A stretch of DNA of 64,000 nucleotides from Minisyncoccota bacterium (GTDB lineage Bacteria > Patescibacteriota > Minisyncoccia > Minisyncoccales > JAQTPW01): the NCBI GenBank assembly GCA_028712565.1, contig JAQTPW010000004.1:838-64837 (forward strand). Reading direction: 5' to 3'. Below are positions 12,093 to 60,940 of this stretch, one piece after another; position 1 is the first letter of the stretch, and every line of letters starts with the position of its first letter. Both the position numbers and the translations under genes were made by a program. The notes under the pieces were generated by a model. The model was not told the origin of the DNA, did no database searches, and was given only the letters and a program-made list of their open reading frames with translations.

Positions 12093-12108
12093 TTATTAAA
12101 AATTTTAG

Positions 12109-12459
12109 TGGAGGTGTGGGGACTTGGACCCCAATCCAGAAATTTTGCCAAAATATTTCTACAAATGTATCCTGTTTATTTAAGATGCCGGATTTGAAAC
12201 AGGAAAAATTTCAGCATCTTTTGCCTCTGTTTTTTGATAGTTTCCCGAGGCAAAAAACTATCTATCTCGATGTGTGACACCTGATGACGCCTATCGAGAA
12301 TCAACGGTCAGATGGTTTACGCGATTAGGCGCAAACAGTAGCAAGTTTTGGACTTGCGAATAAGTTAGCACTTATTCTAGTTGCTGGAAGTTTAATGAGA
12401 TTCTAGCAAACTCAATTTGCGTATTTTGGTAAAAGTTTCCGTCGAATCCTTGCACCCCC
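12109..12459 (-). ncRNA. ssrA: tmRNA (SsrA), one-piece, about 351 nt
   Basis: 5' GGGGGUGCAAGGAUUCGACGG. 3' T-arm GGGGUCCAAGUCCCC followed by CACCUCCA, which pairs with the 5' end and includes a G3:U pair. Candidate tag frame GCT AAC...GCC TAA at 12369-12325 gives (A)NLFASPKLATVCA*. Lies next to smpB. Confidence 0.85.
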
Positions 12460-15677: not shown

Positions 15678-18600
15678 ATGGAGATAAATTTTGTAAAAAA
15701 CGAGGAAAAAATATTGAAATTTTGGAGAGAAAACAAAATTTTTGAAAAGAGCATAGAAAAAAGAAAAAATGCCAAAAAATTTGTTTTCTTTGAGGGCCCC
15801 CCAACTGCGAATGGCAAACCCGGAATTCACCATGTTTTAAGCAGGGTTTTTAAAGATATTATTTGCAGATACAAAACAATGCAGGGTTTTAGAGTGGAAA
15901 GGAAAGCCGGTTGGGATACCCATGGACTTCCAGTTGAGTTGGAAATTGAAAAAAAACTTGGACTAAAAAATAAAAAAGATATTGAGGATTACGGAATCGC
16001 ACGTTTTAACAAAAAATGCAAAGAATCTGTCTGGGAATATCTGCAGGATTGGGAAAAATTAACCGAAAGAATTGGCTTTTGGCTGGATCTAAAAAACCCC
16101 TATATTACCTACGAAACAGATTATATTGAGACTGTTTGGTTTATTTTAAAAGAAATTTATAAAAAAGGTTTATTATCTCAAGATTACAAAGTTGTTCCTT
16201 ATTGCCCGCGATGCGGAACGACTCTTTCCAGCCACGAAGTTGCTCAGGGATACAAAAAAGTAAAAGGGCCATCAATATATATTAAATTTCAAATTTTAAA
16301 TCCAGAATTTAAAGATTCTTATTTGTTGGTTTGGACGACGACTCCCTGGACGCTTCCCGGGAATGTAGCAGTTGCCATAAACCCGGCCTATACCTATATA
16401 AAGGTAAAATTTAATAATGAGAATTTAATTTTGGTAAAAGATAGAATGGAAGCCTGCGGATTAAAAGATGCAGAAATTTTAAAAGAATTTAAAGGAAAAG
16501 ATTTGTTGGATTTGTATTATCAGGCTCCTTATCCGATAGATTCAAAGAAAGAAATGACAACTTATAGGGTTTTGCCCGCAGAATTTGTTTCCTTAGAAGA
16601 TGGTTCAGGTATGGTTCATATAGCTCCTGCTTTTGGCTTGGATGATATGGAATTAATAAAAAAAGAAAATGTAAAACTAAGAAAAGAAAAAGAGCCTGAA
16701 TTCCCAATTTTGCTGACAGTAAACGAAGAAGGAAAATTTAAATTTGAGGTAAAAAAATGGGCAGGAATGTTTGTAAAAGATGCAGATCCCTTGATAATTG
16801 CTGACTTAAGAGAGAGGAGCCTGCTTTATAAAGAAGAATTATATGAACACGATTATCCTTTCTGTTGGAGGTGCAAATCTCCTTTATTGTATTACGCAAA
16901 ACAGAGCTGGTTTATAAATATGCAGGCGAAAAAGCAGGATTTAATAAAAAATAACCAAAAAATAAATTGGGTGCCTGGCCATTTGAAAGAAGGAAGGTTT
17001 GGCGAATGGTTAAAAGAAGTAAAAGACTGGGCAATATCTAGAGAAAGATATTGGGGGACGCCTTTGCCGATTTGGAAATGCAAAACCTGTAATGCTTTGG
17101 AGGTTTTGGGGTCAAAAACAGATTTGGTATCCCAAAAATTCAGCAAAAATAGCTATTTTGTAATAAGGCATGGCGAATCCTATAAAAATAAAAAAGACGT
17201 TCTTTCTTGCTGGCCGGAAAAAACCCCTTTTAATTTAACTGAAAAAGGGAAGGTGCAAATTGCCACGGTTGCTAAAAAATTAAAAAACAAAAAAATTGAT
17301 TTAATATTTTCTTCTGACATTTTAAGGACAAAGCAAACCGCCGAGATTATCGCCAAAGATCTTAATTTGAAGGTGAAGTTAGACAAGAGGTTAAGAGAAA
17401 TTAATATTGGTATTTTAAATGGTAAAAAACAAAAAGATGCTTTTGATTTTTGGGGAAAATCCACCCTTTCTCCAATTGAATATACGCAAAAAAGATTCCA
17501 AGTAACTCCTCCTGAGGGAGAAAATTATGCGGATGTTGAAAAGAGGATGTTGAGTTTTATGAAAGAAATGGAAAATAAATACCAAGGGAAAAATATTTTA
17601 TTAGTCAGTCACCAACGTCCAATAACTCTACTAGAAAAAGTAATGGAGGGCTTCGATATTAAAAAATTTGCTGATATTCTAGTTAAGGATAAAGAGATAA
17701 AATTGGGAGAAATCAGAGAATTTGATTTTGCAAATCTTCCTTACGATGAAAAAATGGAATTTGATTTCCATAGGCCCTATATAGACGAAGTGAAATTTTA
17801 TTGTAAAAAATGCGGGGCCCAAATGGAAAGAGTTCCCGAAGTTCTTGACTGCTGGTTTGATTCAGGTTCTATGCCTTTTGCCCAGAATCATTGGCCCTTT
17901 GTGAAAAATCTCCGCCCAAGGCGGACCAGCCTCGGGCTGGAAAACTTAAGACCACCAGAATTGTTTCCAGCAGATTATATTTGTGAAGCAATTGATCAGA
18001 CAAGAGGATGGTTTTATACTTTGCTGGCAGTTTCCACCTTGTTGGATTTCGAGTCGCCTTATAAAAATGTAATTTCCGTAGGCCATGTTTTGGATGAAAA
18101 AGGAGAGAAAATGTCAAAATCAAAAGGCAATATAGTTGATCCTTGGTATATTATCGGGAAATATGGCATAGATGCAGCAAGATGGTATTTCTATACAATA
18201 AATCAGCCCGGAGAACCAAAACTTTTTTCAGAAAAAGATATTGATGGCGCCTTGAAAAAATTTATTTTGACATTTTGGAACTGCTACATATTTCTGAAAA
18301 CTTACGGAGAAAAAATCAGCCCAAAGGTGAATTTAAAAACAAAAAATGTTTTAGATAGATGGATTATTTCAAGACAAAATCAGCTGATTTTTGACGTAAC
18401 AAATGCTTTGGAAAAATACGATGTGACGGGGGCTAGCCGACTGATTGAAAAATTTGTCGTTGATGACCTCTCTCTTTGGTATGTAAGAAGATCTCGAAGG
18501 AGATTCCAAAGGCCAGAGACAAAAAACGAAGCAAAGATCGCTTCTGAAGTTTTGGGCCAAGTTATTTTTACTATAACTAAATTAATGGCGCCATTTTTGC

Positions 18601-19223
18601 CATTTTTGAGTGAAGAAATTTATCAAGAAACTTTAAATTTAGAAAGTGCTAATAATTCAGTACATTTTCAAGATTGGCCAAAGGCGAATAAAAAAATGCT
18701 TGATAAAAAAATAATGGAAGAGATGGAAGGGGTAAGGGAAATCGTAGCTCAGGCTTTGGCAGAGAGGGCAAGGGTCGGGATTAAAGTGAGACAGCCGCTG
18801 AGGCGATTAAAAATTTCCGCCCTGGGCGGATCCGCCTCGGGCGGAAAAAATAAGGAATTATTGGGTTTGATTCGCGACGAGGTTAACGTAAAAGAAGTAG
18901 TTTTTGATTCTAAAATTAAAACCAAAGTGGAGTTAGATACTGAAATTACACCGGAGTTAAAAGAAGAAGGGACAGTCAGAGAAATTATTCGCAACATCCA
19001 AGAATTGAGGAAAAAGGCGAATTTCAAGCCGAGTGATAGCATTTCAGTGAGATATTCCGGGAGTCCGGATTTAGAGGAGATTTTAAGCAAAAACGAAAAA
19101 ATTATTTTAAAAGAGGGAAAAATCAAGGATCTCCAGAAAAAAACACAAGACGAAAAATTTAACATCGAAGAAGAAATAACGGTCGATCAGCAAAAAATAA
19201 TAATATCAATCAAAAAAATTTAA
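15678..19223 (+). CDS. ileS: isoleucine--tRNA ligase carrying a nested histidine-phosphatase domain
   Basis: PPTANGKPGIHH (15822-15833), WTTTPWTLPGN, editing-domain blocks, KMSKS at 18108-18122, DQTRGWFY. At 1181 aa it is about 200 aa longer than expected because of the insert at 17.15-17.75 kb. Confidence 0.9.
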   Translation: MEINFVKNEEKILKFWRENKIFEKSIEKRKNAKKFVFFEGPPTANGKPGIHHVLSRVFKDIICRYKTMQGFRVERKAGWDTHGLPVELEIEKKLGLKNKKDIEDYGIARFNKKCKESVWEYLQDWEKLTERIGFWLDLKNPYITYETDYIETVWFILKEIYKKGLLSQDYKVVPYCPRCGTTLSSHEVAQGYKKVKGPSIYIKFQILNPEFKDSYLLVWTTTPWTLPGNVAVAINPAYTYIKVKFNNENLILVKDRMEACGLKDAEILKEFKGKDLLDLYYQAPYPIDSKKEMTTYRVLPAEFVSLEDGSGMVHIAPAFGLDDMELIKKENVKLRKEKEPEFPILLTVNEEGKFKFEVKKWAGMFVKDADPLIIADLRERSLLYKEELYEHDYPFCWRCKSPLLYYAKQSWFINMQAKKQDLIKNNQKINWVPGHLKEGRFGEWLKEVKDWAISRERYWGTPLPIWKCKTCNALEVLGSKTDLVSQKFSKNSYFVIRHGESYKNKKDVLSCWPEKTPFNLTEKGKVQIATVAKKLKNKKIDLIFSSDILRTKQTAEIIAKDLNLKVKLDKRLREINIGILNGKKQKDAFDFWGKSTLSPIEYTQKRFQVTPPEGENYADVEKRMLSFMKEMENKYQGKNILLVSHQRPITLLEKVMEGFDIKKFADILVKDKEIKLGEIREFDFANLPYDEKMEFDFHRPYIDEVKFYCKKCGAQMERVPEVLDCWFDSGSMPFAQNHWPFVKNLRPRRTSLGLENLRPPELFPADYICEAIDQTRGWFYTLLAVSTLLDFESPYKNVISVGHVLDEKGEKMSKSKGNIVDPWYIIGKYGIDAARWYFYTINQPGEPKLFSEKDIDGALKKFILTFWNCYIFLKTYGEKISPKVNLKTKNVLDRWIISRQNQLIFDVTNALEKYDVTGASRLIEKFVVDDLSLWYVRRSRRRFQRPETKNEAKIASEVLGQVIFTITKLMAPFLPFLSEEIYQETLNLESANNSVHFQDWPKANKKMLDKKIMEEMEGVREIVAQALAERARVGIKVRQPLRRLKISALGGSASGGKNKELLGLIRDEVNVKEVVFDSKIKTKVELDTEITPELKEEGTVREIIRNIQELRKKANFKPSDSISVRYSGSPDLEEILSKNEKIILKEGKIKDLQKKTQDEKFNIEEEITVDQQKIIISIKKI
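17151..17700 (+). other. histidine phosphatase superfamily (PGAM-like) domain embedded in-frame in ileS
   Basis: RHGES 17166-17180, SSDILRTKQTAE, REINIG, LLVSHQ (His codon 17610-17612). Flanked by the IleRS blocks PIWKCKTC... and FHRPYID... Confidence 0.7.
17912..17940 (+). repeat. GC-rich twin-hairpin element, in-frame in ileS
   Basis: CCGCC-CAA-GGCGG at 17912-17924 and CCAGCC-TCG-GGCTGG at 17926-17940. Encodes RPRRTSLGL in an otherwise AT-rich gene. Confidence 0.8.
18816..18845 (+). repeat. GC-rich twin-hairpin element (30 nt), in-frame in ileS
   Basis: TCCGCC-CTG-GGCGGA followed by TCCGCC-TCG-GGCGGA. Encodes SALGGSASGG. Confidence 0.85.
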
Positions 19224-55489: not shown

Positions 55490-56503
55490 TTATTTAGATA
55501 ACATGCGTTCTGCGATAGCTCGTACGTGCTGAGCTTCTTGTTTGGGCATCTGTTTTAAGATGTCCTTCGCTTCATCAATTTTCTGAGCCCGAATGGCGTG
55601 GCGTATCAAAACGAGAAGAGCTGTGACTTTTACCTCATTCGCGTCTTTGCCTTCGCCAACGGCTCGTAAAACTTCAAAGGCATTAGGATCACCTTTGCTA
55701 TATATATCTATAGCCCGGACGAATTCCGCAGAAGTCGCTATTTCGGAAGAACCTGTCATTCTATCTGCTGCGGCAATAACCATGGCAACCCAATTCTTCA
55801 AATCGGGATTGCTCATCTGATTCAGCCAGATAGTGGTTTCAATCATATGAATCGGTCCATTGATTTGTCCCCACTGGACTTCAACCGAAGATCCTTTCGT
55901 TGCATCAACTAGTATTAAGAATCTTTTCTCCAACTCAGAGAAAATTTCTTTGGTTTCGATGCCCTTAAGTAAGGCATTCCTAAGTTGGCATAGCGTTTCC
56001 ATAAAATAAGCAATCGCTGCGCCAGTCTTGTCGCCAATGATGGTCGCTATTTCGGCTGATTTTCTTTGGGCTTCTTCTGCAAGATCAAAATGTTCATAGT
56101 TGGAATAAAAAATACCCATGTGATAATAAAACAAAGATTCAAGGCGGAGTTTTCTTGTACTGTCCGGTAAATTAGTGATAATGTTTTTCGTTTCCCTCGC
56201 AATCTGCAAGACAAATTCCTCACGTTCTGGGCTGACAGGGAGAAGCCGTTCGCCGCGAAGAATGGCAAGACATGCCAATGCTCCCATTTCAGGCAGATCG
56301 CGGACCCTCAGAGATACTCGTCGGCCAATCTCTGCGAATGTTTTGGGGTCATTAAGATCAATTGCTACAAATCGGTCAACTATTTGGAAAAGTACATCAG
56401 TCAGCCATCCTACCCATTGATTTTTTGGGTCGGGAAAGGTAGTATCGATTCTCGCCCGATCAACAATTAAATCAACCAAGATATCAATTTCAAAATCTTT
56501 CAT
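55490..56503 (-). CDS. hypothetical all-alpha (TPR-like?) protein, GC-richer than its surroundings
   Basis: GGAGGTG SD then the ATG at 56503 (MKDFEIDILVDL...). The longer ORF-track version runs through tRNA-Leu. No family recognised. Confidence 0.45.
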   Translation of the reverse strand: MKDFEIDILVDLIVDRARIDTTFPDPKNQWVGWLTDVLFQIVDRFVAIDLNDPKTFAEIGRRVSLRVRDLPEMGALACLAILRGERLLPVSPEREEFVLQIARETKNIITNLPDSTRKLRLESLFYYHMGIFYSNYEHFDLAEEAQRKSAEIATIIGDKTGAAIAYFMETLCQLRNALLKGIETKEIFSELEKRFLILVDATKGSSVEVQWGQINGPIHMIETTIWLNQMSNPDLKNWVAMVIAAADRMTGSSEIATSAEFVRAIDIYSKGDPNAFEVLRAVGEGKDANEVKVTALLVLIRHAIRAQKIDEAKDILKQMPKQEAQHVRAIAERMLSK

Positions 56504-56599
56504 TTGTTCACCTCCAAAATAGCAATAGCATAAAATATCCAGCTTGTCAAATATAAATGCAAACAAAAAAGAAACCTTATAAGGTTTCTTTTTAAACGG

Positions 56600-56682
56600 T
56601 GGGCGGGGAGGGAGTCGAACCCTCATGAGATTGCTCTCATGGCATTTTGAGTGCCACGTGTCTGCCATTCCACCACTCGCCC
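56600..56682 (-). tRNA. tRNA-Leu (anticodon CAA)
   Basis: Cloverleaf by eye: acceptor GGGCGAG/CCCGCCC (one A:C mismatch), anticodon arm TGGCA-CTCAAAA-TGCCA, long variable arm TGAGA-GCAA-TCTCA, T-arm GAGGG-TTCGACT-CCCTC. Confidence 0.8.
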
Positions 56683-56725
56683 AACTCAATTTTTGAGTTT
56701 ACCAAAATTTTGGTTGTTTTTCAAC

Positions 56726-59764: not shown

Positions 59765-60940
59765 ATGTCTCTTTCCGTCGGCATTGTCGGGTTGGCAAAT
59801 GTAGGCAAATCTACTTTATTTGAAACCCTGACAAAAAAACAAGTTAATATTTCAAATTATCCTTTTTGCACCATAGATCCGAATATCGGAATTGTTGAGG
59901 TTCCGGACGAACGGCTTGAAGAATTGGCCGCGATTTTTCATTCGGCAAAAAAAATTCCAGCGATTGTAAACTTTACCGATATTGCGGGTTTGGTAAGAGG
60001 AGCCAGTAAGGGAGAAGGGCTGGGAAATCAATTTTTGGCGCATATTAGAGAAGTGGACGCTATTTTGTTTATTGTCAGGTGTTTTGAAAATCAAGAAATT
60101 ATCCATGTGGAAAAAAGCGTAGATCCTATTCGAGATATAGATATTGTTAATATGGAGTTGATTTTTAAGGATTTGGAAACCTTGCAAAAAAGAATAGAAA
60201 AAGCAGAGGCAGACGCAAAAACTGGAAAGAAAGTAATTATTAACGAGTTGGAATTATTGAAAAATTTAAAAACCGCCCTCGAAAAGGGAATTTTGGCAAG
60301 GCAGTTTGTTGAACAAAGCAAAAATCTATTTGATGAAAGTACGGCATCGGGTTTGGAGAATTTGAAAACTTTAAAAGAAATCCAGTTATTAACTGCAAAA
60401 CCTGGCATATATATTTTAAACGCCCAGCCCAAGGCTGGTCCGCCTGGGGCGGAAAATACTTTCGAGGTGTCTCCAGAACTTGTCAAAAAAATAAAAGATC
60501 TGAATTCAGAATATATTGTCGCCAGTTTAAGGGATGAATATGACAGCAGCAAATTTACAGAAGCAGAGAAAAATGAATTGGGTTTAACTGAATCAAAATT
60601 AAATGAAATTATTGTAAAATCTTACAAAACTCTGGATTTGATTACTTTTTTCACAACAGGTCCTGACGAAACCCGCGCTTGGACAATAAGGCGGGGGACG
60701 AAAGCTCCGCAGGCCTCGGGAGTAATCCATACTGATTTTGAAAATAAATTTATTTGTGCAGATACTATCAATTGGGAAAAGTTGGTGGAGATCGGCAAAA
60801 GTAGCCCTTCGACCCATTCGACAAGCTCAGGGCAAGCTGACGCTTGGAGTTTGGCTGGAAAGCAAGGACTATTAAGAATGGAAGGCAAAGAATATATTGT
60901 TCAAGACGGCGATGTGATTGAAGTGAAGCACGGTCAGTAA
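59765..60940 (+). CDS. ychF: ribosome-binding ATPase YchF
   Basis: GIVGLANVGKSTLFETLT, FTDIAGLV, FFTTGPDETRAWTI, C-terminal EGKEYIVQDGDVIE. Carries two repeat-derived in-frame inserts. Confidence 0.9.
   Translation: MSLSVGIVGLANVGKSTLFETLTKKQVNISNYPFCTIDPNIGIVEVPDERLEELAAIFHSAKKIPAIVNFTDIAGLVRGASKGEGLGNQFLAHIREVDAILFIVRCFENQEIIHVEKSVDPIRDIDIVNMELIFKDLETLQKRIEKAEADAKTGKKVIINELELLKNLKTALEKGILARQFVEQSKNLFDESTASGLENLKTLKEIQLLTAKPGIYILNAQPKAGPPGAENTFEVSPELVKKIKDLNSEYIVASLRDEYDSSKFTEAEKNELGLTESKLNEIIVKSYKTLDLITFFTTGPDETRAWTIRRGTKAPQASGVIHTDFENKFICADTINWEKLVEIGKSSPSTHSTSSGQADAWSLAGKQGLLRMEGKEYIVQDGDVIEVKHGQ
60424..60453 (+). repeat. GC-rich twin-hairpin element (30 nt), in-frame in ychF
   Basis: CCAGCC-CAA-GGCTGG followed by TCCGCC-TGG-GGCGGA. 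Encodes QPKAGPPGAE. Same architecture as the ileS copies. Confidence 0.85.
60801..60850 (+). repeat. TTCGAC...CTCAGGGC family element in-frame in ychF
   Basis: GTAGCCCTTCGACCCATTCGACAAGCTCAGGGCAAGCTGACGC encodes SSPSTHSTSSGQADA. It sits where other YchF proteins have a short linker and resembles the minus strand of 44281-44352. Confidence 0.75.

Follow-up and report, generated by a model that had tools for sequence, protein, structure and literature searches.

A 30-nucleotide twin-hairpin insertion element in ileS and ychF of a Patescibacteria genome and its putative link to small GIY-YIG nucleases

The ileS and ychF genes of this bacterium contain, between them, three short GC-rich sequences that can each form a pair of hairpins. 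What are these sequences, and how did they come to lie in essential genes without breaking the reading frame? We analyzed them within a 64-kb window (the whole stretch of DNA under study), which has a GC content of 35.5% and encodes a YchF protein that is identical to one in a cluster database from a “MAG: Candidatus Pacebacteria bacterium” (P0121). A first-pass annotation of this DNA had reported three loci with a common two-hairpin architecture, and we found all three of them (Table 1). It had also described them as GC islands in AT-rich genes, and indeed, neither ileS nor ychF has a longer stretch of 70% GC or more than these.

Table 1. Twin-hairpin elements in the window and the genes that contain them.
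Feature	Position	Strand	Sequence or product	Remarks
Twin-hairpin copy 1	17911..17940	.	TCCGCC-CAA-GGCGGA + CCAGCC-TCG-GGCTGG	in ileS
Twin-hairpin copy 2	18816..18845	.	TCCGCC-CTG-GGCGGA + TCCGCC-TCG-GGCGGA	in ileS
Twin-hairpin copy 3	60424..60453	.	CCAGCC-CAA-GGCTGG + TCCGCC-TGG-GGCGGA	in ychF
Host gene ileS	15678..19223	+	isoleucyl-tRNA synthetase, 1181 aa; E = 1e-254 to 1ILE	copies 1 and 2
Host gene ychF	59765..60940	+	ribosome-binding ATPase, 391 aa	copy 3

Each copy is exactly 30 nt long and is made up of two abutting, perfect 15-nt hairpins, each with a GC-rich stem of 6 bp and a loop of 3 nt. Copy 1 had been thought to start at 17912; its real start is 17911, so copy 1 is also exactly 30 nt long, and the in-frame length that had been claimed for just two of the copies holds for all three. 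The stem consensus needed correction as well: the proposed (T)CCRSCC-NNN-GGSYGG(A) misses the TCCGCC stems, and CCRSCC...GGSYGG finds only two hairpins. The actual consensus is YCMGCC-NNN-GGCKGR, occurring twice, and the stems in the window are either TCCGCC/GGCGGA or CCAGCC/GGCTGG. Perfect hairpins with a GC-rich 6-bp stem and a 3-nt loop occur seven times in the window, and six of the seven are inside the three twins. After shuffling, the window contained about one hairpin of 5 bp or more on average and no twins (three twins observed versus zero expected), and chance matches to sub-patterns of the twin hairpin ranged from 0 to 0.55. RNA folding predicts twin hairpins for copies 1 and 3 (-18.7 and -18.5 kcal/mol, respectively), while copy 2, which has two identical stems, may alternatively form one long hairpin (-23.5 kcal/mol). 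Copy 1 and the reverse complement of copy 3 agree in 28 of their 30 nt. Outside the window, the same 30 nt as copy 1 are found in another Patescibacteria genome (L066), and the sequence of copy 3 recurs unchanged in a cassette in L096, directly next to a GIY-YIG gene.

Copies 1, 2, and 3 are read in codon phases 2, 1, and 3, and the reading frame is kept in all of them. Since the element is ten codons long and GC-rich, it can enter a gene in any codon phase without breaking the frame, and the protein gains ten residues. The resulting peptides are LRPRRTSLGLE for copy 1 (element residues (L)RPRRTSLGL(E), IleRS amino acids 745-755), SALGGSASGG for copy 2 (IleRS 1047-1056), and (A)QPKAGPPGA(E) for copy 3 (YchF 220-230). 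Given the three phases and the orthologs without these residues (see below), the elements are DNA-level insertions and not conserved peptides. We rejected the idea that the element is “designed” to avoid stop codons: 45% of copies have no stop codon in any of the six frames, versus 42% of random 30-mers of the same composition.

Residues at these sites in orthologs had been named as evidence against insertion, and the alignments do not go that way. In YchF, all 36 of 36 relatives (57–82% identity) show a clean 10-column gap at copy 3. For copy 1, there is a 10-residue gap in the IleRS of T. thermophilus (1ILE), IleRS has the same length as a relative (P0002) once the element is subtracted, and among 120 homologs, only the IleRS from the window has an element there. 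The IleRS loop that contains copy 2 varies in length; 118 of 120 homologs have no element in it, and copy 2 is not a clean net insertion relative to the homologs. Its codon boundary is also occupied in an unrelated genome (L220, GCA_030648315.1), whose IleRS is 48% identical and whose element has different loops. Among other proteins with elements, Tgt and HisRS have clean 10-residue gaps in comparison to solved homologs. In UvrB, the element’s peptide aligns without a gap, which makes this case ambiguous and not a clean net insertion.

The first-pass annotation had also expected the insertions to map to surface loops, and structure models agree with this for two of the three copies. In AlphaFold models, copy 2 lies between a strand (348-353) and a helix (366-376), where pLDDT dips to 77, and copy 3 is a coil directly after the strand at 214-219 of YchF, with pLDDT of 57 versus 91 and 76 around it. 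The invariant Asn of YchF's G4 region immediately precedes copy 3. Thus, both are in low-confidence coils between regular secondary-structure elements. The model of the C-terminal half of IleRS has pLDDT under 50 throughout its N-terminal third and is therefore uninformative about the site of copy 1.

Scanning a genome collection, we identified at least 120 twin-hairpin loci. About 43% of the loci listed are from CPR/Patescibacteria, and other hosts among the loci listed are PVC, Omnitrophota, Gammaproteobacteria, Ignavibacteria, and Bacteroidota. Besides MAGs from short-read assemblies, which make up most of the carriers, there are single-cell genomes, a closed long-read chromosome, and the cultured isolate Marivirga aurantiaca S37H4. 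Because the pattern used for the scan prescribed 8 of every hairpin’s 12 stem positions, or 16 of the 24 in an element, decayed copies are underrepresented. Phages are not the element’s main reservoir, given that 2.9 million viral contigs yielded just 19 twin-hairpin loci. Overall, the pattern is strongly over-represented both in the window and across genomes. Together with the ortholog alignments, this supports the earlier suggestion of a mobile or recombinogenic mini-element that is tolerated as an in-frame insert in surface loops. We found no published description of the twin-hairpin element in the literature that we searched, no match to it in Rfam 15 (the window gave a tmRNA and tRNA only, and 17 element-bearing loci matched tRNAs alone), and no strain-level polymorphism in its presence or absence.

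Copies of the family occur within genes, between genes, and inside copies of tRNA genes. About half are inside genes. Open reading frames of at least 100 aa contain 82 of 125 copies, versus 88% of random positions, so some copies are intergenic. The host proteins include aminoacyl-tRNA synthetases (IleRS and HisRS among them), YchF, Tgt, UvrB, and RecG. The 75 genic copies are split 45:15:15 among the three phases, and the most common phase encodes Ser, Ala, and Gly (SAxGGSAxGG); surviving genic copies favor this phase and sit in loops. The loops of the two hairpins are of the form NNA and TNN, in mutually inverted sense. Both hairpins have the same stem type in 60 of 150 copies, and only then are the outer arms inverted repeats; the stem type of one half does not depend on that of the other.

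Even though the search pattern did not demand complementarity, 236 of 250 hairpins were perfectly complementary. In the stems, 99.3% of cells were paired (versus 89.6% in shuffles), and there were 97 double-sided changes versus 25 in shuffles (0 of 500 shuffles reached this number), while sliding the stem registers reduced pairing to 22–47%. Hence, paired changes preserve the complementarity of the stems. In one orthologous pair, identity is 28/30 in the element but just 48–62% in the flanks. The covariation could reflect hairpin-templated correction or the amplification of a few master types instead of selection. We also considered two further kinds of pairing and rejected both: complementarity between the two loops (“kissing”) was seen 18 times versus 15.5 expected, and a flanking T..A helix that would close both hairpins was paired in 63% of cases without excess covariation. 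The flanks of the element reflect a sequence preference, not a helix.

Copies of tRNA genes show how exact the insertion is. In eight loci (L077, L095, L120, L140, L141, L143, L147, and L219), the interrupted tRNA copies have precisely the 30 nt more than their intact paralogs, and target bases are neither duplicated nor lost. The points of insertion are at TT(N)|AA in the D-, anticodon-, and T-loops. In AT-rich genes, the preferred junction is similarly T-rich|A-rich, approximately AAAT-N|AAAA. Without the 30 nt, the junctions in ileS and ychF of the window would read AAAAATC|AAAACTT, AAAAATT|AAAAATA, and TAAACGC|AAATACT. We also observed a nested copy (in L067) and tandem copies (in L137).

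Members of the family often have a small nuclease gene as a neighbor, and this gene in turn lies beside tRNA genes. In loci that were selected for the element (0.93 Mb), there were 10 stand-alone GIY-YIG ORFs (PF01541, E = 7e-17 to 7e-12), and nine of these were within 180 nt of an element. These ORFs encode a catalytic domain of about 85 aa and no recognizable DNA-binding domain. In 80 loci that were chosen by the GIY-YIG protein alone, 31 of 37 family hairpins were in the 12% of sequence that flanks the ORFs, which is a 37-fold enrichment (p = 6e-23). A tRNA lies within 300 nt of 59 of 91 GIY-YIG ORFs, always on the same strand (59/59), and for 26 of 53 ORFs, 12 nt or more of the neighboring tRNA reappear as a duplicate on the opposite side. 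Hairpins are more common in cassettes that have such a duplicated fragment than in those that do not (12/26 versus 2/27, p = 0.0018). The hairpins lie within the fragment, and in eight of nine cassettes, the element is 4–12 nt from the fragment’s end at the cassette junction, whatever the tRNA coordinate. Nevertheless, we rejected the twin hairpin as an obligatory part of the GIY-YIG cassette. Among the 80 protein-selected loci, just 20 (25%) have a family hairpin nearby and just eight (10%) have a twin, and 14 of the 26 duplicated tRNA fragments are uninterrupted. As more than half of the fragments lack an interruption, the link could be indirect, via a preference for neutral tRNA-like DNA. 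Also, no GIY-YIG gene lies within the 64-kb window, and about 130 of 150 copies have no nuclease gene in the surrounding 8 kb that we fetched. We know of no GIY-YIG transposase in bacteria.

We propose that the three sequences in the window are probably copies of a miniature, non-coding, dispersed DNA insertion element, with putative mobilization or capture by the GIY-YIG system. Specifically, the stand-alone nuclease of about 85 aa would mobilize the elements, or its breaks would capture them. The nuclease’s gene would itself be a selfish cassette: it would settle next to a tRNA gene and make a second copy of part of the tRNA, and hairpins would build up in this partial copy within a few bases of the cassette junction. 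The conservation of tRNA genes between phyla would let the cassette carry hairpins from one distant host to another, and from cassettes the hairpins may reach further sites, ileS and ychF among them. A stronger version, which is possible but which we consider doubtful, is that the nuclease and the 15/30-nt hairpin module form an unrecognized two-part mobile system, in which the nuclease homes into tRNA genes and cuts or mobilizes the hairpin module to give precise 30-nt insertions.

Could the element have a different origin? It seems rather unlikely that it is a mobile or repair-derived element that moves independently of the nuclease, prefers structured T|A loop DNA, and survives in neutral, duplicated tRNA fragments, while insertions into functional tRNAs are purged. 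This would account for the insertion points in tRNA loops, the many copies (and the window itself) with no nuclease gene around them, and the duplicated fragments without hairpins, which indicate that the element arrives secondarily. But it leaves the mover of the element unexplained, a preference for loops would not by itself be expected to produce the 4–12 nt spacing from the junction, and a 37-fold enrichment beside the ORFs is very large for a passive landing pad. It is also unlikely that the element is REP/REPIN-like and is moved by an HUH (Y1, IS200/RAYT-type) single-strand transposase, with the hairpins as its binding sites and an incidental link to GIY-YIG. Several features do fit the biology of IS200/IS605 and REPs (PMC3733652): the element is small and its hairpins are GC-rich, its two units are inverted relative to each other (loops NNA and TNN), it makes no target-site duplication, and it has a sequence preference 5' of the insertion point. 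However, a GTAG or CGTC tag is within 8 nt of just 7 of 148 copies, which is below the chance level of about 15%; about half of the copies are genic, whereas REPs are extragenic; and REP families are normally lineage-specific and not common to several phyla. A tblastn search with one IS200 TnpA sequence, which is a weak test, gave no match in 1.38 Mb of element-bearing loci, while the 0.93 Mb of element-selected loci contain 10 GIY-YIG ORFs.

Alternatively, the sequences might not be mobile at all but rather a structured motif that is selected in place, either as a pair of RNA or DNA hairpins (with a role in mRNA stability, processing, pausing, or protein binding) or as a flexible peptide linker. 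The strong covariation in the stems, the orthologous element that is more conserved than its flanks, the excess of the Ser/Ala/Gly phase (45/75), and the ileS site that is occupied in two distant genomes could all be read this way. We nonetheless consider it improbable. A single peptide function does not fit, because the three phases give three unrelated peptides and copies also lie in intergenic DNA and tRNA pseudo-copies; the element has no T-tract and hence is no terminator; no Rfam family matches, and there is neither a loop-loop pairing nor a flanking helix; and nearly all orthologs lack the element, which argues against a conserved role in ileS or ychF. Some copies may have been exapted. 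Finally, because most carriers are short-read MAGs, an adapter, chimera, or other artifact of sequencing, assembly, or binning might be suspected. This explanation is effectively refuted: loops and stems vary with compensatory changes, reading frames stay open through the copies, the same site is filled in assemblies made independently of each other (L011 and L066; the window and L220), and the carriers extend to cultured M. aurantiaca, single-cell genomes, and a closed long-read chromosome. To our knowledge, the element does not resemble any familiar sequencing adapter.

A dispersed insertion element, as we propose, invites comparison to known systems. The first-pass annotation had likened the sequences to Rickettsia palindromic elements (RPEs). 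RPEs are roughly 100–150 bp and are confined to Rickettsia and relatives. The resemblance is functional: both are short palindromic repeats that are dispersed in a reduced bacterial genome, insert in-frame into essential genes, and are read as extra surface peptides. The element described here is nevertheless not an RPE, as it is 30 nt, is modular (15 + 15), is found in other taxa and across phyla, is linked to GIY-YIG genes and tRNAs, and inserts without duplicating its target. Double-hairpin elements are also known from Allomyces, and yeast GC clusters occur within and beside free-standing endonuclease-like ORFs. Like the twin hairpin, mitochondrial GC clusters and the repetitive hairpin-forming elements of sponges are GC-rich (double-)hairpin mini-elements in AT-rich genomes, and they are mobile and sometimes lie in coding or RNA genes (PMC4478555, PMC2800124). 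The twin hairpin, too, is a GC-rich double hairpin in an AT-rich genome, with intergenic, RNA-gene, and coding sites. In contrast to the mitochondrial elements, which are organellar and lineage-specific (and were compared by description only), it has a fixed length of 30 nt and a tRNA-linked GIY-YIG partner gene, and it is found in the chromosomes of free-living or episymbiotic bacteria of many phyla.

REPs and REPINs are similar in being GC-rich, high-copy palindromes of 20–40 nt, often in inverted doublets, that make no target duplication and have one presumed trans-acting enzyme (RAYT). REPs are marked at one end by a conserved tetranucleotide, GTAG or CGTC (PMC3733652). The twin hairpin lacks this tag, is genic in about half of its copies (including all three in the window, which are in essential genes), spans phyla, and had no Y1 transposase nearby in the weak search described above. 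The GIY-YIG cassettes, in turn, resemble free-standing homing genes such as SegB in the tRNA gene cluster of phage T4, in that a GIY-YIG ORF lies between or beside tRNAs, next to a conserved target gene with flanking homology. Duplicated target flanks of the ORF are expected under intronless homing (PMC2330249). Unlike the Seg genes, these ORFs are just ~85 aa, have no recognizable DNA-binding domain, and are in the chromosomes of diverse bacteria instead of in phages, and the Seg systems have no counterpart to the dispersed hairpin mini-element. Coxiella QMITEs and other bacterial MITEs are also small, non-autonomous repeats, and some QMITEs extend or interrupt ORFs (PMC5896051). MITEs, however, have IS-derived terminal inverted repeats and target-site duplications, while the twin hairpin makes no such duplications and is several-fold shorter; no IS element that could be its parent was identified. 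Overall, the twin hairpin is a fresh variant among the small palindromic elements that insert in-frame (RPEs, mitochondrial GC clusters and double-hairpin elements, and REPs).

If confirmed, the twin hairpin would be among the smallest dispersed insertion elements known in bacteria, with the unusual trait that the same sequence occurs in distant phyla. If the two-part system is real, it would be smaller than any other mobile element known from bacteria and would be the first to depend on a GIY-YIG enzyme, and its targets, which are conserved in all bacteria, would allow it to jump between phyla. The element also provides a route by which conserved essential proteins in the reduced genomes of Patescibacteria (aminoacyl-tRNA synthetases, YchF, Tgt, HisRS, and RecG) could gain ten-residue loops, which bears on alignment, phylogeny, and structure prediction for these lineages. 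For annotation, it implies that neither the GC-rich islands nor the odd peptides should be taken for errors. The statistical link to GIY-YIG genes beside tRNAs makes the small and long-unannotated “GIY-YIG nuclease family proteins” a testable selfish-element system and suggests tRNA genes as a vehicle for inter-phylum transfer, and since M. aurantiaca is cultured, experiments are feasible.

The three loci picked out by the first-pass annotation are all present as twin hairpins, with one correction: it had placed the start of copy 1 one base late, so all three copies are exactly 30 nt. Each is a pair of abutting perfect hairpins with 6-bp stems and 3-nt loops, in a window whose GC content is 35.5%. 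The whole window has seven perfect GC-rich hairpins of this kind, six of them inside the three twins; shuffled sequence has, on average, about 1 hairpin of at least 5 bp. RNA folding gives twin hairpins for copies 1 and 3 (about -18.6 kcal/mol), and copy 2, whose stems are identical, could also form one long hairpin. The copies begin at codon positions 2, 1, and 3, respectively, and are translated as LRPRRTSLGLE, SALGGSASGG, and AQPKAGPPGAE. With three phases and three different peptides, what the copies have in common is DNA, not peptide. The window's YchF is a 100% match to a protein from a MAG annotated as "Candidatus Pacebacteria bacterium."

Features of the window, in window positions (hairpins are written arm-loop-arm)
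Feature	Position	Strand	Details
Copy 1	17911-17940		TCCGCC-CAA-GGCGGA + CCAGCC-TCG-GGCTGG; in ileS
Copy 2	18816-18845		TCCGCC-CTG-GGCGGA + TCCGCC-TCG-GGCGGA; in ileS
Copy 3	60424-60453		CCAGCC-CAA-GGCTGG + TCCGCC-TGG-GGCGGA; in ychF
ileS	15678-19223		E = 1e-254 to T. thermophilus IleRS
IleRS loop of copy 1	~17905-17945		low-complexity inserts in relatives
IleRS inserted domain	17100-17780		aa ~475-700
ychF	59765-60940		host ORF of copy 3
Second ychF insert	60817-60837		aa ~350-358; TTCGACAAGCTCAGGGCAAGC
tmRNA gene	12106-12459	-	Rfam RF00023, 123.5 bits
tRNA gene	56600-56682	-	in window
Listed 399-aa ORF	55490-56689	-	overlaps tRNA gene

That homologues lack these residues had been expected, and the alignments bear this out. 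At copy 3, all 36 YchF relatives (57-82% identical) have a clean 10-column gap (FILNS----------NTLEISPEL). At copy 1, there is a 10-residue gap relative to the T. thermophilus IleRS structure, IleRS minus copy 1 equals its relative P0002 in length, and no other IleRS among 120 homologues has an element at this site. Copy 2 lies in a loop of variable length and is absent from 118 of 120 IleRS homologues. One homologue, P0085 (48% identical), has SARGGSATGG in the same alignment columns, and its DNA (L220) carries an element with different loops at the same codon boundary (TTA AAA GTT/E/AAA AAT AAA versus TTA AAA ATT/E/AAA AAT AAG in the window, where E is the element). A third element-bearing IleRS homologue (P0023; locus L221) has it at yet another site. 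In other genomes, the hosts Tgt and HisRS show clean 10-residue gaps relative to solved homologues, and the comparison for UvrB is ambiguous.

The elements are tolerated in protein loops. The placement in loops that had been proposed agrees with the AlphaFold models for two copies: copy 3 is predicted as coil directly after strand 214-219 (pLDDT 57 versus 91 and 76 on either side) and copy 2 lies between a strand and a helix (77 versus 93-95). The model is uninformative at copy 1. Separately, several relatives (P0003-P0006, P0012, P0017, P0029, and P0081) have low-complexity inserts of ~10 amino acids in the IleRS loop of copy 1 (such as QNSKVKSQK, NQKSKIKNQK, and IPNSKFQIPK). From their sequences, these would be short AT-rich inserts of tandem or hairpin type, and the loop may be a hotspot where insertions recur.

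The twins belong to a real, widespread family. When one genome per species was scanned for exact matches (YCMGCCNNNGGCKGR x2), at least 120 loci were found; this and the three twins in the window versus zero in shuffles support the over-representation that had been predicted. About 51 among the matches listed are from Patescibacteria, and the other listed hosts are mainly PVC-group, Omnitrophota, Gamma/Pseudomonadota, Ignavibacteria, and Bacteroidota. (Two matches in genomes of >70% GC look like chance.) Viral contigs have few copies (19 loci), one with two elements in tandem. Phyla share stem subtypes, and lineages are only modestly biased toward particular ones. L066, from a different Patescibacteria genome, has an element with the same 30 nt as copy 1, and an element in L096 matches copy 3 at every position. 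When copy 3 is reverse-complemented, it agrees with copy 1 at 28 of 30 positions. In the orthologous pair L011/L066, the element is 28/30 identical versus 48-62% for the flanking coding DNA.

The complementarity of the hairpins is maintained. The scan pattern imposed no complementarity between stem arms, and 236 of 250 hairpins were perfectly complementary, with four covarying stem types. Among 100 distinct copies, 99.3% of stem cells were paired (89.6% in shuffles; 22-47% in slid registers), and there were 97 double-sided stem changes versus 25 expected, a number reached in 0 of 500 shuffles. Stem types of the two halves vary independently. The first hairpin has an NNA loop and the second a TNN loop, which makes the units inverted relative to each other; no complementarity between the two loops was found beyond chance. 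The flanks have T at -2 (98/124) and A at +2 (95/124). We rejected a flanking helix, and the T/A flanks are a sequence preference; the genic target consensus among the sites seen is roughly AAAT-N/AAAA. Open frames of at least 100 amino acids contain 82 of 125 copies (88% for random positions), so copies occur within genes as well as between them. The 75 clearly genic copies are split 45:15:15 by phase, with the Ser/Ala/Gly reading commonest, as would be expected if elements insert in any phase and purifying selection then acts on them. The elements are no freer of stop codons than random GC-rich 30-mers.

To see the sequence before insertion, we compared element-interrupted tRNA fragments with the intact tRNA paralogue beside them. 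The junctions include ggggttc/E/aaatccc in a T-loop (L219; ggggttcaaatccc when intact), gtggttg/E/aaggc in a D-loop (L077), gtggttt/E/aactgg (L095), gtcttg/E/aaaac in an anticodon loop (L120 and L067), and ggcc/E/gagt (L140 and L147), and there are further loci. Each time, exactly 30 nt were gained, and target bases were neither duplicated nor lost, so insertion is precise. The family also includes single 15-nt modules and split hairpin pairs, and in L067 one element is nested in another. In L219 (70-230), a near-full-length tRNA-Gln duplicate upstream of a GIY-YIG ORF has the complete twin in its T-loop and a 19-nt half element (CCCGCCAGAGGCGGA + CAAG) in its D-loop, so single modules can insert too. 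In L144 (2900-3340), the two hairpins lie 9 nt apart within a tRNA-Ser-like repeat unit, so the twin is not the sole arrangement; this unit forms direct repeats around a GIY-YIG ORF, with its start in three copies.

When we clustered all ORFs of the element-bearing loci, the sole recurrent non-housekeeping neighbor was a stand-alone GIY-YIG catalytic domain of ~85 amino acids (PF01541, E = 1e-12 to 1e-17). It lies within 180 nt of the element in 9 of 10 occurrences, in loci selected for the element. Because of this selection, we also retrieved 80 metagenome loci with the protein as the sole criterion. In this second set, a twin lies within 200 nt of the ORF in 8 loci and any family hairpin in 20, and 31 of 37 hairpins fall within the 12% of sequence flanking GIY-YIG ORFs (37-fold enrichment, p = 6e-23). 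The ORFs (in L140-L219 from metagenomes and in L022, L025, L067, L077, L095, L096, and L120) have a tRNA within 300 nt in 59 of 91 cases, always on the same strand (59/59); these tRNAs include Arg, Ser, Glu, Asn, and others. In 26 of 53 cassettes, at least 12 nt of the tRNA are duplicated on the far side of the ORF. This architecture is what would be expected if a free-standing homing-type gene inserted into a tRNA gene and restored it, and from sequence the cassettes look like intronless homing into tRNA genes in many phyla. The element is tied to these cassettes strongly, not universally: more than half of the tRNA duplicates are uninterrupted, so it is an optional, secondary occupant, and there is no GIY-YIG ORF within the 64-kb window.

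The DNA-level insertions of the mini-element first proposed are observed, and mobilization by the nuclease is what we infer. The GIY-YIG nuclease would supply the break or mobilization, and the cassette, which would target genes conserved in all bacteria, could carry the hairpins between phyla. That nuclease and hairpin module form a new two-part mobile system is a tentative proposal. Hairpins are present in 12 of the 26 cassettes with a tRNA duplicate versus 2 of the 27 without (p = 0.0018). Passive accumulation in neutral tRNA fragments is an alternative that we consider unlikely. In 8 of 9 cassettes, 4-12 nt separate the hairpin from the end of the duplicated tRNA stretch, irrespective of the tRNA coordinate. 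This junction-proximal position and the enrichment are explained better by the nuclease than by passive accumulation or by any of the following.

Mobilization of a REP-like element by an HUH enzyme seems rather improbable: REP tags are absent from the elements, and no IS200-type transposase matched in 1.38 Mb of loci (a weak test). The maintained stems might point to a functional motif selected in place, which we think highly unlikely. As for an artefact, the carriers include the cultured isolate Marivirga aurantiaca S37H4, single-cell genomes, and a closed chromosome, and we give this explanation almost no weight.

Full-text literature searches found no description of the 30-nt twin-hairpin element. 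The likeness to Rickettsia palindromic elements that had been suggested holds for functional behavior and not for length or taxon. The element also differs from REPs, which are defined by a tag and an extragenic location, and from MITEs, which are defined by target duplication. Double-hairpin elements of chytrid mitochondria are functionally comparable to it. Similar functional behavior is seen in Coxiella QMITEs (PMC5896051), yeast mitochondrial GC clusters, and sponge mitochondrial hairpin elements (PMC4478555, PMC2800124). The partner ORF resembles T4 segB, a free-standing GIY-YIG homing gene in a tRNA cluster (PMC2330249).

In three loci from PVC genomes (Kiritimatiellae/Verrucomicrobia; L003, L012, and L072), the twin lies within a longer conserved repeat (…cataggaattt/E/caatccgt…) that is present in two or more copies in one locus and may be a lineage-specific composite element; in L003 it is 177 nt from a divergent GIY-YIG-like ORF. 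An Omnitrophota RecG-like helicase (L056, aa ~341-365) has SPPKAGPPTAE and, five residues on, GGSAYGG, which hints that another element, partly decayed, or a lone module lies beside the first.

The window's ychF has a second, different short GC-rich in-frame insert, which reads HSTSSGQA and is modeled as a low-confidence loop (pLDDT <50 at 350-357). Its core, AAGCTCAGGGCAAGC, is also in a Saccharibacteria locus (L080). Two YchF relatives (P0132 and P0161) have SFDKLRTG at another site, which is what this motif would encode in another frame. The insert probably represents a further family of miniature insertion elements. The 5' part of the listed 399-aa ORF is probably spurious because it overlaps the tRNA gene. 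Finally, the halves of the IleRS catalytic core are separated by a ~200-aa histidine-phosphatase domain (PF00300 His_Phos_1, E = 2.5e-37, with an RHG motif). It is unusual for an aminoacyl-tRNA synthetase to have a phosphatase fused within it; among the best 120 IleRS matches, a large share have PF00300 listed, and the domain is common to many Patescibacteria IleRS.
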